64,000 nt of DNA. Source: an uncultured Verrucomicrobiae bacterium. GTDB taxonomy: Bacteria; Verrucomicrobiota; Verrucomicrobiia; Chthoniobacterales; UBA10450. Positions 6,701 to 44,261 of the stretch are shown in pieces; the stretch's first letter is position 1, and each line of letters opens with the position of its first letter. Both the position numbers and the translations under genes were made by a program. The DNA is taken from NCBI GenBank assembly GCA_963763995.1, contig CAVXQL010000010.1, positions 24,187 through 88,186 on the forward strand, read 5' to 3'. Below the pieces are notes generated by a model. The model had not been told where the DNA came from, searched no databases, and saw nothing but the letters and a program-made list of their open reading frames with translations.

Positions 6701-6786
6701 GTCATCCTGAGCGACGCGAGGGACCTTTCAAAAGTTCGGAAGCGCTAGCCTGCGTTAGGGAGAGCCTTCGCTCCGCTTAGGATGAC
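6701..6786. repeat. MITE-like palindromic element, copy A (GTCATCCTGAGCG ... CGCTTAGGATGAC)
   Basis: 86-bp element with terminal inverted repeats and internal GAGGGACC / CCTTCGCTCCGC boxes. Homologous copies lie at 35678-35789, 43096-43203 and 43872-43949. Confidence 0.8.
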
Positions 6787-33773: not shown

Positions 33774-35669
33774 ATGCGGCAGATCAATATTAGAAGGTTG
33801 GTGACGGTGTGCATTGCTGGAGCGCTGCTCGCGCTTTCTTTTCCTGCTCACGCGCAGGATGCGGCTTCATCCGAGATCTCGAGCGAAAGTGAACCGATCG
33901 TGGTGAGCGCGACTCGACTTCCCATCCCGGAAGATGAATCGCCTTCGAGCGTGAGCGTGATCACGGATGAAATTATCGAGCAAAAACAAATTCGGCGCGT
34001 GGCGGACGCGTTACGGGAAGTTCCCGGATTGTCGGTCGTGGAAACTGGGACGGCGGGACAGCAGACCTCGGTCTTCATCCGCGGTTTGCGTAGCGAGCAC
34101 ACGCAGGTTTTGATCGACGGGATTCCGATCAACCAGGGACTTCAGGGAGCCTTTAACTTTGCCGACTTAACCACCGACAACATCGCTCGGATCGAGGTTG
34201 TTCGCGGACCGCAGAGCACTTTATACGGTCCACGCGCGCTGGCAGGGGTGATTCAGATCTTTACCAAGCAGGGCAGCGGGCCACCGACAGGCGAGTTCAG
34301 CGCGGAAGCTGGATCGTTCGACACGTTTCGCGAAACCTTCCAGAGCTCGGGCTCGGTTCGGCAGTTCGATTATTCCGTCGGACTGAGCCGCCTCGATACG
34401 GATTATGAACGGCCGAACAATCAGTATCGCCTGAGCAACGGCCTCGTGAACATCGGCTGGACGCCTAACGAACAATGGAGAATCAGCGGCTTGTTTGCCT
34501 ATTCGCTCGCTGACGCTGGGAATCCGAATTCGATCTTCGATCCGAAGCCATTCGATAATCTTTTGACCGAACGCTGGCTGGTCGCTCCACGGGTTGATTT
34601 CAAGCCGGTCGATTGGTGGGACCACCAGTTGATCGTCAGCTACGATCACGAACGGCAGGTGAACGATCCGAACGACGACGGTTTCGTCGGCCCGACGCGC
34701 GCGCTGTTCAAACGCTTGACCGTCGACTATCAAAACGATCTCAAAGCGGCATCGTGGCTCACGCTGACCTCGGGGTTTTTCTATAGTGATGTCGACGCGG
34801 GCCAGGAACGGCCATTCGTTTCACAGGACTTCGGGCCGCAGCCGACCTTCGTCAGCGATCACACGGAAGAGACCGCGGTATTCCTGCAGGCGAGCATCAC
34901 GCCATGTGAAGGTTTGTTGCTCGTAGCCGGTGGACGCTACGATTATTTCAATCAATTCGGCGGCATCTGGACTTATCGCATCGCCGGAAGTTACAGAATC
35001 AAACCGACGGACACGATCTTGCATTCGAGCATTGCGACTGGCTTCAGTCCGCCCAGCAGTCAGGATAAGATCTTCGGCAACAACTTTGGCCTGGAGCCGG
35101 AAAAAGATCGCGGGTTTGACGTGGGAATTGAACAGCACTTTTGGGGAGGGCGAGGCTTCGTTGGCCTGACGTATTTTCACAACGACTTGTCGAACCTGAT
35201 CGGCTATAACGGGCTCTTCGACACCTTGAATCTGGGCGCCGCGTTGACGCAGGGACTGGAAAGCGAGATGCAGATTCGACCGATGCCCGATCTCAGTTTC
35301 TCGGCGACGTACACATACCTCGATGCGGAGAAAACGTCGGCGGTAGACATTAATCAACCACAGGGCGCGCGATTGCCGCGCCGGCCGCGCAATGAGTTTT
35401 ATGTTTCGGCATCATACCTGTGGTGCAAAAAATTGCGGACGACTGTGGAAGCAAAATTTGTCAATGCGCGGGAGGAGCTGAGTTTCGGCGCCCCGAACTT
35501 CGATATTGAGGATTACTCTTTTGTGAATTTCGCGGCCGAATACGAAATCAATCCCCACCTCACGATCTTTGGTCGGATCGACAACGTGACGAATGAGCAG
35601 TACGCCGAGGTGTTTGGTTTCCCGGCGTTGGGGCGGGGCGCGTATGCAGGAGTGAAGGTGCGGTTCTAG
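33774..35669 (+). CDS. btuB: TonB-dependent outer-membrane receptor, BtuB-like
   Basis: 631 aa with a signal peptide, a TonB box (EPIVVSATR), a plug domain (VPGLSVVETGTAGQQTSVFIRGL) and a C-terminal beta-barrel ending in ..GVKVRF. Confidence 0.88.
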   Translation: MRQINIRRLVTVCIAGALLALSFPAHAQDAASSEISSESEPIVVSATRLPIPEDESPSSVSVITDEIIEQKQIRRVADALREVPGLSVVETGTAGQQTSVFIRGLRSEHTQVLIDGIPINQGLQGAFNFADLTTDNIARIEVVRGPQSTLYGPRALAGVIQIFTKQGSGPPTGEFSAEAGSFDTFRETFQSSGSVRQFDYSVGLSRLDTDYERPNNQYRLSNGLVNIGWTPNEQWRISGLFAYSLADAGNPNSIFDPKPFDNLLTERWLVAPRVDFKPVDWWDHQLIVSYDHERQVNDPNDDGFVGPTRALFKRLTVDYQNDLKAASWLTLTSGFFYSDVDAGQERPFVSQDFGPQPTFVSDHTEETAVFLQASITPCEGLLLVAGGRYDYFNQFGGIWTYRIAGSYRIKPTDTILHSSIATGFSPPSSQDKIFGNNFGLEPEKDRGFDVGIEQHFWGGRGFVGLTYFHNDLSNLIGYNGLFDTLNLGAALTQGLESEMQIRPMPDLSFSATYTYLDAEKTSAVDINQPQGARLPRRPRNEFYVSASYLWCKKLRTTVEAKFVNAREELSFGAPNFDIEDYSFVNFAAEYEINPHLTIFGRIDNVTNEQYAEVFGFPALGRGAYAGVKVRF

Positions 35670-35677
35670 TCATGCAT

Positions 35678-35789
35678 GTCATCCCGAGCCGCGGAGACGG
35701 CGAGGGACCTCATATTCGTTTGTAGAGCGCGCGTCGGGTGAGGCGATCAATCATGCTTATGCGAGGTCCTTCGCTCCGCTCAGGATGAC
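35678..35789. repeat. MITE-like palindromic element, copy B
   Basis: GTCATCCCGAGCC...GAGGGACCT...AGGTCCTTCGCTCCGCTCAGGATGAC, 112 bp, immediately after the btuB stop. Confidence 0.8.
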
Positions 35790-35857
35790 TGCGAGAGGGC
35801 GATGGGTGTATCTGGTGCTCGCTTGAACATGCGACGCACTGCTGGTAATCGCTAAGA

Positions 35858-37074
35858 GTGCGCCCGGAACTTTATCTCGCGGTTGGTTTTATCGTTGGTG
35901 TGGCGTTAGGCGCTTGCGTTTTCCTGCTCTCACGCCGTCGTCGTTCCGGCGAAGCAGAACTCATTCAGCGTTTGGAACTACTCGATCGCGCGCAAGAGAG
36001 AGCCGAGCGCATGTTGCGAGAAGAAATGTCGCGCGGCCGGGAAGAAAACGCGCAATCGGCCAAGACACAGCGCGACGAACTTACTTCCTCGCTGGAGAGC
36101 GTCCGTTCGATTGTCGATCTGCGCCTGAAACAATTGCAGGAAGACAATTCCCGACAGATCGAAAAAATGCGCGCGACGGTTGACGAGAAATTGCAAGGCA
36201 CACTGGAGAAGAGGCTGACGGAATCGTTCAAGCTCGTGAGCGAGAGGCTCGAGCAGGTGCACCGGGGACTCGGCGCCATGCAGCAACTGGCGAGCGATGT
36301 CGGTGGATTGCAGCGTGTCCTGACGAATGTGAAGACGCGTGGCGGCTGGGGCGAAGTCCAGCTGGGTGCGCTCCTCGGGCAAATCCTAACGACAGACCAA
36401 TTCGCGTGCAATGTAAGGACGCGTGATGAGAGTGGGGAGACGGTAGAATTCGCAATCAAATTGCCGGGCGATGAAAACGGTGCGCCGGTTTGGCTTCCGA
36501 TCGACGCAAAATTCCCGATCGAAGATTATCATCGACTAATCGCGGCGCAGGAGATTGCGGACGTGCCGGCGGTGGATGCTGCGATGCGCAGCCTGGAAAC
36601 GCAGTTGAAAAAATGCGCGAAAGATATTTGCGCGAAGTACATCAACCCGCCGAAGACGACGGACTTCGCCCTCATGTTTCTGCCGACGGAAGGACTTTAT
36701 GCCGAAGCTGATGCGCCGCGTTGGCCTGGTCGAGCAGGTGCAGCGCGATTGCCGGGTGGTGTTTGCTGGGCCGACGACACTGGCGGCGTTGCTCAACAGC
36801 TTGCAAATGGGATTTCGCACTCTCGCCATTCAAAATCGTTCTAGCGAAGTCTGGAATTTGCTAGCGCGCGGTGAAAAATGAGTTCGGGAAATTCGGCGAT
36901 GCCTTGTCGAAAGTAAAACATAAACTCGATCAGGCATCGAGCGACATGGACAAAGTTGCTAAACATTCTCAAAGAATCACAAAAAGCCTGAACGACGTGG
37001 AGGAACTGCCTACGAATCCGCAGCCACTGTTGCCGGAGTTACTAGCGGAGCCGGAAGAAGAAGAACCAGATTAG
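35858..37074 (+). pseudogene. rmuC: DNA recombination protein RmuC, split over three frames by two +1 shifts (about 36707 and 36866)
   Basis: Frame A (35858-): TM plus coiled coil ...FLPTEGLYAE. Frame B (ORF 36699..36881): LMRRVGLVEQVQRDCRVVFAGPTTLAALLNSLQMGFRTLAIQNRSSEVWNLLA. Frame C (36871..37074): VKNEFGKFGDALSKVKHKLDQ... Joined, the three parts give a colinear RmuC. Confidence 0.85.
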
Positions 37075-43095: not shown

Positions 43096-43203
43096 GTCAT
43101 TCCGAGCGCAACGTACTGGAGTCGAGGAATCCCGGCGCGCTCCGAGAAGGTAGGAGAACGCGCGGTTGGTGGTGTGGGATGTCTCGACGACGCTCGACAT
43201 GAC
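43096..43203. repeat. MITE-like palindromic element, copy C
   Basis: GTCATTCCGAGCG...GTCGAGGAATCCC...TCTCGACGACGCTCGACATGAC. Its terminal ATG (43199-43201) is the tsaD start codon. Confidence 0.75.
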
Positions 43204-44261
43204 GATTCTAGCGCTGGAGACATCTTGTGACGAAACCGCTGTCGCCATCTTGCGCGAGAAAGAATTGCTTGCCAGCGAAGTGGCTTCGCAAATCGGCCGA
43301 GCACCAGCCCTACGGCGGCGTGGTTCCCGAAGTTGCCTCGCGAAATCATCTCAGGCACGCGCCGCTGCTGCTTGAGCGCGCGATAAAACGAGCTGGAATT
43401 TCGCTCGCGGAAATTGATGGCTTTGCCGCGACCAGTGGACCGGGCCTGGCCAGTTCCCTGATGATTGGCACCTCGATTGCCAAGGGTCTTGCCATCGGGT
43501 TCGGCAAACCCTACCTCGCGATCAATCATCTCGAAGGGCACTTGCTTTCGCCATTTTTCGGAGGCGAAATTGAAATCCAGCGAAATGTTTCATTGATCGT
43601 TAGCGGCGGGCACACGCTGCTGATCGAAGTAAATGGGATGGCCGATTACCGTCTGCTCGGACGTACGGTCGACGATGCTGCGGGAGAGGCGTTCGATAAA
43701 GTGGCGAAGATGCTCGGCCTCGGTTATCCGGGCGGACCAGAAATTGAAATGCGAGCGCGCGCCGGCGATCCGACGCGGTTCGATTTGCCGCGGAGCATGC
43801 TCGACTCCGGCGACCACAATTTCAGTTTCAGCGGGTTAAAAACAGCCATGCGCTACCTGCTGGCGAAGCTTGTTATCCCCAGTGAAGTCGAGGGATCCCG
43901 GGGAGCTTCCAGTAACATGGCGGGATCCCTCGGCTTCGCTCTGGATGACAAGCTGTTAGCCGACCTCTGCGCCTCTTTTCAGCGTGCGGTGATCGAAGTG
44001 CTCGTGCGAAAAACGCTGAAAGCAGCACGCGCCTGCCGGTTAAAAGTCGTGACGGTGAGCGGCGGTGTAAGTTGTAATCGGGAATTGCGAGTTCAGGTGA
44101 CCACAGCCTGCGAGCGCGAAGCAATCCAGGTTCTTTTTGCCGCACCCGAGCTCTGCACCGATAACGCGGCGATGATTGCTTTCGTCGCTGCGTTACGCCT
44201 CGATGCGGGATTTGGCTCCAACGTCACGGACGAAATCGATCCGAATCTCGCGCTCGCGTGA
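43199..44261 (+). CDS. tsaD: tRNA N6-adenosine threonylcarbamoyltransferase TsaD; frame interrupted by one extra base at 43295
   Basis: MTILALETSCDETAVAILREKELLASEVASQI (frame of ORF 43166..43375) continues as AEHQPYGGVVPEVASRNHL... in ORF 43227..44261. Deleting G43295 gives a colinear TsaD. A 26-codon repeat insertion is also present (43872-43949). Confidence 0.9.
43872..43949. repeat. MITE-like palindromic element, copy D, inserted in frame inside tsaD
   Basis: GTTATCCCCAGTGAAGTCGAGGGATCCC...GGGATCCCTCGGCTTCGCTCTGGATGAC. It is 78 bp, exactly 26 codons, and reads VIPSEVEGSRGASSNMAGSLGFALDD. Confidence 0.8.

Follow-up and report, generated by a model that had tools for sequence, protein, structure and literature searches.

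A dispersed palindromic repeat in frame within tsaD of an uncultured verrucomicrobium, probably carried as a tolerated passenger

The window analyzed here is a stretch of 64,000 nucleotides from an uncultured, soil-type Verrucomicrobiae bacterium of the order Chthoniobacterales (contig CAVXQL010000010.1, positions 24,187 to 88,186), and its numbering is used throughout unless a contig is named. Its tsaD gene, for the tRNA N6-adenosine threonylcarbamoyltransferase (43199..44261, plus strand, read through one frameshift), contains a near-perfect palindrome of 78 nucleotides at 43872..43949 that is free of stop codons and reads as 26 residues in frame with its host. We consider it probable, at close to four chances in five (about 0.78), that this insert is a copy of a non-autonomous repeat resembling MITEs (transposable elements of the miniature inverted-repeat type) and repetitive extragenic palindromic (REP) sequences, and that it persists as a passenger, tolerated and screened by purifying selection, and not as an adapted module of the enzyme. 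In the following the genome under study (3.64 Mb) is designated G000, its congener G001 and the bacterial family of G000 f1; labels such as C2, C7, C8, C10 and C14 refer to contigs.

The palindrome lies on the plus strand, as do all features of the window described below, and corresponds to residues V225 to D250 of TsaD. It starts on a codon boundary, 645 nucleotides or 215 codons from the start of the open reading frame (ORF) 43227..44261, and its translation in context is ...GLKTAMRYLLAKL-VIPSEVEGSRGASSNMAGSLGFALDD-KLLADLCASFQRAVIEV..., followed by KLLADLCASFQ. An earlier sequence-only reading of the window had described it as an in-frame palindrome with exactly these coordinates and this translation, both of which were reproduced. 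The left arm GTTATCCCCAGTGAAGTCGAGGGATCCCG (43872..43900) encodes VIPSEVEGSR and the right arm CGGGATCCCTCGGCTTCGCTCTGGATGAC (43921..43949) encodes (A)GSLGFALDD, while the central loop between them (43901..43920) holds GGAGCTTCCAGTAA. The element is flanked by AAGCT at 43867..43871 and again at 43950..43954, and via AAGCTT these flanks, which are specific to G000, lengthen the palindrome by 5 bp: a repeat search returned arms of 34 nucleotides each (43867-43900 and 43921-43954) that are 85% complementary and separated by the loop of 20 nucleotides. In four other genomes with the insert (G001, G019, G020 and G208) the element is preceded by 21 nucleotides encoding a GLSVPTC-like segment that was lost in G000. 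As evidenced by RNA folding of positions 43860-43960, which yielded -63.3 kcal/mol compared with -33 +/- 3.5 for dinucleotide shuffles (z = -8.76, reached by none of 200 shuffles), the palindrome is far from chance. The element was checked for terminator and promoter function and lacks a terminator-like tail. Note that the only Rfam match, to a plant miRNA precursor, reached 25 bits where the gathering score is 197 and is taken as a chance match on a long hairpin. The paired AAGCT flanks also raised the idea of translational bypass or hairpin excision, which was rejected, as no stop follows the putative take-off codon and the flanks are unrepeated in G001, G019 and G020.

When G000 was searched loosely for paired termini and then with an nhmmer model of 50 half-elements, the insert fell into a family of the form GTCATCCYGAGCG...CGCTCRGGATGAC, which has about 26 complete copies (59-158 bp) and some 60 halves that are weaker or solitary. 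Family members have conserved termini of 13 nucleotides, complementary arms of 25-35 nucleotides and a variable loop; the consensus half-element reads GTCATCCYGAGCG(N)AGYCGARGGAYC, and GTCATCCTGAGCCGCGCAGACGGCGAAGGA is a variant with a long terminus. In the tsaD copy both 13-nucleotide termini occur in inverted orientation, as does the inner (A/G)GYCGARGGAYC box. Its left terminus has four mismatches to the consensus and its right one matches well (E = 0.0064); both ends are paired by the profile, and the membership in a repeat family that had been proposed from the letters alone stands under a proper model. Its closest paralogue is a copy of 83 bp at C2:513282-513364, with which it has GTCGAGGGAT and AACATGGCGGGAT..CTCGGCTTCGCTC in common. 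The 26 complete copies are preceded by T in 19 cases and followed by A in 18, and no direct repeats indicative of a target-site duplication flank them. An autonomous partner was sought between half-sites 1.2-4 kb apart in the copy-poor G000, and these pairs enclose genes for elongation factor P, a KpsF-like protein and other ordinary functions, but no transposase. The two Y1_Tnp genes of the genome (C4:341613 and C8:125682) have no half-site of the family within 15 kb.

The family is characteristic of one bacterial family. We surveyed its terminal 24-mer in 61 f1 genomes from 36 genera and in 150 other Verrucomicrobiota genomes, and found it in 55 of the former, representing 33 of the 36 genera, at 0-156 half-sites per genome; among the 150 genomes outside f1 there was one stray match. 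Copy number is strongly unequal within the genus, with 10 occurrences of the 24-mer in G000 and 86 in the congener, and along an 80-kb syntenic stretch about 12 complete copies are present in G001 compared with 4 in the window of G000.

The insert itself is specific to a lineage, in agreement with the sequence-only reading. In an alignment of the TsaD genes of 40 relatives, the linker at the insertion site is 15-16 residues long, exemplified by LLPKLKGDYLADLCAS and AVRYLLPKLKGDYLA (before DLCAS), in six other families of the order and in the basal f1 genera represented by G003 and G004, and inserts of the VIPSEVEGS type are found in TsaD of G000, G001, G019 and G020. Relatives that lack the repeat 24-mer (G005, G024 and G008) also lack the 26 residues, the opposite of what would have spoken against a repeat origin of the loop. 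In five genomes from three genera (G000, G001, G019, G020 and G208) the element measures exactly 78 nucleotides and has the same right junction, and because the lengths of family members elsewhere vary from 59 to 158 nucleotides, this indicates that these copies are orthologous and descend from one old insertion. Of the 4-fold degenerate sites in tsaD, 45% are different between G000 and G001 and about 60% between G000 and G019 or G020, by which measure the insertion is of considerable age.

Beyond these genomes, longer elements of the same family occupy the tsaD linker in G009, G223, G210, G217, G007, G222 and G196, and stumps or remnants are found there in G006 (GTCATTTCGACCGACGCTCGCGATGAC), G018, G021, G005, G002 and G202. 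We considered a single origin for all insert-bearing genera and rejected it: carriers are scattered on a loop-masked TsaD gene tree, and in each of three genera a carrier stands beside a species whose linker is of the ancestral type or short (g23, G210 vs G023; g121, G194 vs G215; g125, G219 vs G198). The distribution thus points to several gains or near-precise losses at the linker, which a tree of a single gene with some open forks is too weak to count.

The comparison with the congener separates the behavior of the arms from that of the loop. Over the whole element there are 20 differences in forward alignment and 12 when one copy is reverse-complemented; for the loop alone 14 of 20 positions differ forward and 6 of 20 as reverse complement, and GGAGCTTCCAGTAA is common to both copies in opposite orientation. 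The central loop has therefore been inverted in place between G000 and G001, the simplest route being recombination of one arm with the other or a template switch between them. The arms, on the other hand, differ at 6 of 58 positions (10%; 3 of 19 third positions), as compared with 45% of 4-fold sites and 42% of third positions in the remainder of the gene. All three changes in the left arm are synonymous and all three in the right arm are non-synonymous, none of them at a third position, and for this reason the constraint on the arms is one on the nucleotides and not on the peptide. In the four orthologues 82.8% of stem cells are paired, compared with 32-46% when the partner columns are slid, and three stem pairs are altered on both sides (17:62, 25:54 and 27:52). 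Against shuffle controls the covariation signal is marginal, as it was reached by 35-38 of 500. These two-sided changes match subfamily signatures seen in other copies of the repeat (GTCGAGGGATCC vs GCGAGGGACC).

The intergenic copy of 112 bp at 35678..35789 has an orthologue in G001 with almost identical arms and a diverged loop. Counted by eye, the right half of the insert in G000 matches the paralogue at C2:513282 in 27 of 30 positions and its own G001 orthologue in 24 of 30. We infer that homogenization, by conversion from arm to arm or copy to copy, or else a DNA constraint acting on the whole family, accounts for these patterns better than adaptation of the TsaD loop. The sequence-only reading had seen in the insert a palindrome domesticated as a protein loop, which finds no support here: the arms evolve slowly at the level of nucleotides, and as those of an intergenic orthologous copy do the same, this is a property of the repeat family and not of the loop in TsaD. 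The neighborhood of that intergenic copy (35478-35989, the end of a TonB-dependent-receptor-like gene and a spacer) is about 93-95% identical to G001, far closer than the tsaD region, suggesting that the two species have diverged unevenly or have recombined.

For the structural analysis the frameshift was bridged by a declared four-letter codon, and TsaD was modeled with AlphaFold (AF2) from an alignment of 50 homologues. The model has a mean predicted local distance difference test score (pLDDT) of 94 and a predicted template modeling (TM) score of 0.91, and superimposes on E. coli YgjD with TM scores of 0.90/0.95. Its sole weak stretch is the insert, residues 225-250: successive 10-residue blocks over 221-250 average 75, 51 and 67, with values below 50 at 237-243, while the rest of the chain is above 90. 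The insert is predicted as a coil between helices 211-224 and 250-278, compatible with the fold as a surface addition, and this bears out the sequence-only assignment of the segment to a variable surface loop. The TsaD of Thermotoga maritima aligns to residues 1-222 and 254-350 only and has 7 residues where the G000 protein has 31.

The insert was placed by mapping the sequence onto the published T. maritima numbering, from which residue numbers in G000 TsaD differ by +1. By this alignment helix 211-224 corresponds to T. maritima helix alpha7 (Ala210-Glu223), which in a 2026 cryo-electron microscopy structure of the TmTsaB2D-tRNA complex runs along the D-stem of the tRNA, with contacts made by the FSFSGLK motif, Thr214 and Tyr218 (PMC13276492). 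The insert, with a net charge of -3, begins five residues past Tyr219, the equivalent of Tyr218, at the C-terminal end of the helix. By this mapping the insertion site is not an innocuous one, as it abuts a helix that contacts the tRNA D-stem in the T. maritima complex.

The product of the host gene matches Pfam TsaD (PF00814) over its full length (E = 2.7e-81), with T. maritima TsaD as the best sequence match in the PDB (1.6e-82) and the protein of a Chthoniobacteraceae metagenome-assembled genome as the nearest named TsaD (58% identity), and the invariant positions of a 51-sequence alignment, H110, H114, D159, G162, E163, D166, K167 and D321, are kept. A search of the genome returned a single tsaD match, and tsaB, tsaE and tsaC/sua5 are present; because tsaD is the sole copy and its partner genes are in place, the enzyme must work with the insert.

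In the assembly, however, tsaD is interrupted by a +1 frameshift that parts the first 31 codons (ATG at 43199; MTILALETSCDET...ASQ) from the frame of EHQPYGGVVPE. The site ATCGGCCGAG (43292..43301) has one surplus base, at about 43295-43298, compared with ATC-GCGGCG in G001. Between G000 and its congener the remainder of the gene diverges by 4-9% at the first and second codon positions compared with 42% at the third and the proteins are 90% identical, a pattern from which we conclude that tsaD outside the insert is under strong purifying selection. Along the 80-kb syntenic stretch at least five other G000 genes change frame relative to G001, and the three junctions that were checked at the DNA level are single-base indels. 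As similar 1-bp indels occur in an rpoB-like ORF and other essential genes and the rest of tsaD appears to be under purifying selection, its frameshift is most likely an error of the assembly. The single-base indels at about 18954, 27687 and 62112 (C10 ~43140, ~51873 and ~86298) break long conserved ORFs, and the one in the rpoB-like ORF reads CC vs CCC. The assembly thus appears to be indel-prone, broken genes in G000 should not be called pseudogenes without recourse to the reads, and indel errors are a caveat for every argument from reading frames in this genome.

The tsaD insert has counterparts, both in other genes and in other TsaD proteins. A survey of G000 for further in-frame copies, which the sequence-only reading had called for, found them in uvrC (C14:220613-220716, minus strand), inside the RNase H domain of UvrC (UvrC_RNaseH) and reading CHPERSKGSPQ...LRSAQDD, and in a gene for a fadB/J-like multifunctional enzyme (C8:28109-28188, minus strand;.HPERSEG...AQ(D/E)D), together with a half-copy in a dnaE2-like polymerase ORF (C7:~633017, minus strand). 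The uvrC insertion is common to G000 and members of four other genera, G013, G003, G009 and G007, and G001 is left with a right-end stump, LRSTQED, only. Intragenic positions are thus taken by only 3 of the 26 complete copies, plus the half-copy. A bias of copy length toward multiples of three, looked for at the same prompting, is not convincing (13 of 26 copies, P = 0.058), and intergenic copies have 2.09 of 6 frames open as compared with 1.79 in shuffles, which is no enrichment and gives no sign of a design friendly to ORFs. As about one third of frames are open by chance, tolerated in-frame insertions need not be rare given many insertion events, and the in-frame copies would reflect survivorship and not design.

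In G008, G022, G219 and G194 (L008, L010, L145 and L144) the same TsaD linker holds, likewise in frame, an unrelated GTAG-tagged palindrome, TTGTAGGGCG...CGCCCTACAA, that is dispersed in its host genomes (11-14 copies of a 12-mer, compared with 0-2 in controls). In G013 and G022 (L019 and L010) a third palindrome family (GTGGCA..GGCTTCCAGCC..) lies in frame within the loop that follows HLLSPFF in TsaD, and it is dispersed in these genomes as well. Three repeat families have thus colonized TsaD of f1 independently of one another, and two of its loops are affected. An insertion of about 15 residues is present in the loop after HLLSPFF in G217 (L147).

The remaining copies in the window are intergenic. 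One of 86 bp lies at 6701..6786, and one of 108 bp at 43096..43203 fills the spacer between ctpA and tsaD, where its right terminus CGACATGAC supplies the ATG of tsaD. In G001 this spacer holds a different copy of 62 bp that ends about 26 nucleotides before the start codon, so that within the genus this arrangement varies. The tsaD insert had been taken for the shortest copy of its family, and its shortness for a sign of selection for tolerance. It is the shortest within the window, but across the genome complete copies span 59-158 bp, and among those between genes some measure 77, 78, 79 and 80 bp; equally short copies outside genes deprive the length of that meaning.

The history that we favor, with the insert as a passenger, would run as follows. 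A non-autonomous MITE/REP-like palindrome spread through one Chthoniobacterales family, and one copy landed in tsaD of an ancestor of several genera, in the linker from alpha7 to the next helix. It would have survived there owing to a length that is a multiple of three, the lack of a stop in the frame that is read and a linker tolerant of extra residues. The copy would then be transcribed and translated with tsaD as a flexible acidic surface loop of 26 residues that the enzyme presumably tolerates. The complementarity of its arms may have been kept by gene conversion between them or with other copies, or by a sequence constraint on the whole family, recombination between the arms would have flipped the central loop in the G000 lineage relative to the congener, and hairpin-mediated deletions may have left the stumps in other genera.

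Several observations weigh against this account. The slow divergence of the arms, 10% compared with 45%, is not what a purely neutral passenger should show, as such a sequence should decay faster. The insert starts where the D-stem-binding helix ends and may therefore have an effect on the handling of tRNA (PMC13276492). The distribution on the TsaD tree needs several independent insertions or several near-precise losses, and tsaD as assembled is frameshifted.

The conservation of the arms is the point from which a functional nucleic-acid element could be argued, a hairpin selected within tsaD as mRNA, for stability, processing or pausing, or as DNA, as the site of a nucleoid protein or a transposase. 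The contrast with neutral sites, the pairing retained in the orthologues with its three two-sided changes and the strong fold (z = -8.8) all fit this idea. We nevertheless hold it to be unlikely, since the covariation is weak and comes from four sequences only, the two-sided changes coincide with subfamily signatures, for which conversion between copies would give the same pattern, G019 is without much of the stem, the element has neither a terminator-like tail nor an Rfam family, and many genera live without it. It is unlikely, too, that selection keeps the peptide as a domesticated loop, for example as a flexible acidic arm beside alpha7 that modulates how the tRNA D-arm is bound or released or how TsaE and tRNA are exchanged. 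The position directly after that helix, five residues downstream of Tyr219, would suit such a role, the insert has been kept in several genera despite a synonymous-site divergence of about 60%, and the arm-encoded peptides VIPSE.EGS and SL.FA.DD recur. The conservation is, however, at the level of nucleotides, inversion of the loop replaced the central third of the peptide outright, no structure is predicted for the insert, the element is lost or reduced to a stump in many genera while unrelated palindromes take the same loop elsewhere, and an intergenic orthologous copy is equally conserved in its arms. A variant with a slim chance of being right is that of an invertible coding cassette, in which the arms are selected and the flipping loop yields two 26-residue acidic-arm variants that tune the interaction of the N6-threonylcarbamoyladenosine (t6A) synthase with tRNA; if so, the repeated colonization of the linker by two unrelated palindrome families would mark a selectable benefit and not mere tolerance.

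If the frameshift that cuts off the first 31 codons were genuine, tsaD could be a pseudogene in G000 and the insert part of its decay. We regard this as very improbable in view of the missing second tsaD beside intact tsaB, tsaE and tsaC, the open remainder of the ORF with its codon-position pattern and 90% protein identity to the congener, the retained catalytic positions, the 1-bp indels in other essential genes of the assembly and the presence of the same insert in intact tsaD genes of G001, G019, G020 and G208. That a native variable loop resembles the repeat by chance or convergence, with no mobile element having inserted, is hardly credible. The length of this linker does vary among bacteria, and E. 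coli TsaD has about seven residues more than the T. maritima protein here; but both termini and the inner boxes fit the family profile, the stem comprises 29 bp, the element is confined to genomes of the repeat-carrying family, and G005, G024 and G008 lack the repeat 24-mer and the residues alike.

The same insertion can be followed across genera as an unusually clear time series, intact, inverted, eroded and reduced to a stump. The independent strikes by different repeat families map permissive sites of TsaD, namely the linker that follows alpha7 and the loop behind the HxxxH metal motif, and offer natural insertion variants for probing how much room there is at the tRNA-binding face. For annotation, the repeats account for odd segments of the type VIPSE.EGS, HPERSEG and ..AQDD and for the varying lengths that conserved proteins have in these genomes.

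The protein belongs to the TsaD/Kae1/Qri7 family, the catalytic subunits of t6A synthases, by its full-length match, its conserved metal and ATP motifs and its fold, and differs in the linker from alpha7 to the next helix, with 31 residues compared with 7 in T. maritima. The repeat resembles MITEs in its terminal inverted repeats, a size in keeping with their range of 70-300 bp, multiple dispersed copies, the absence of coding capacity in the repeat itself and occasional fusions to ORFs of the host in frame, and intragenic elements of this kind are known in bacteria from the enterobacterial repetitive intergenic consensus (ERIC) and RU elements (Delihas 2007, PMC2759123) and from Coxiella QMITE1 (PMC5896051). 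It differs in the lack of a target-site duplication, and between the half-sites of the copy-poor G000 no parent insertion sequence that shares its termini came to light.

From REPs and their hairpin-forming doublets (REPINs) it is set apart by its start with GTCATCC in place of a GTAG/CGTC tag, by its length of 59-158 bp with arms of 25-35 nucleotides compared with the 20-40 bp of classic REPs, and by the absence of a link to REP-associated tyrosine transposases, as neither of the two Y1_Tnp genes of G000 is near any family copy. Intragenic GTAG/CGTC-tagged REPs were found to be most numerous in another verrucomicrobium, Opitutus terrae, and in Rickettsia conorii; they encode 20-30 residues and have also hit DNA-repair genes, uvrA and uvrB (Di Nocera et al. 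2013, PMC3733652). The likeness to these palindromes inside coding regions of known proteins in the same phylum extends to the GTAG tag of the second palindrome of the TsaD linker.

The closest precedent in behavior is that of the Rickettsia palindromic elements (RPEs), whose hallmark is the in-frame insertion of palindromic repeats of about 100-150 bp into housekeeping genes, nearly half of some families being intragenic (Ogata et al. 2000/2002, summarized in PMC10969869 and PMC3733652). With RPEs and the Opitutus REPs on record, a palindrome in frame within a housekeeping gene is not as unusual as the sequence-only reading had supposed. The tsaD family is presumably distinct from RPEs in sequence, with different termini to be expected. 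It differs from them in that only some 4 of its roughly 30 copies lie within genes, with no excess of open frames among intergenic ones, and in its hosts, free-living Verrucomicrobiota as opposed to obligate intracellular Alphaproteobacteria. It shares with them short dispersed palindromes that are in frame in unrelated housekeeping genes, compatible with fold and function, common to related species and without an associated transposase, and insertions that are stop-free and leave the gene intact were found in tsaD, uvrC, the fadB/J-like gene and, as a half-copy, the dnaE2-like ORF. The family thus fits the description of a MITE/REP-like orphan palindrome that works like an RPE, and thereby takes this phenomenon into a family of free-living and mostly uncultured Verrucomicrobiota in which selfish palindromes can persist in essential genes as protein loops.

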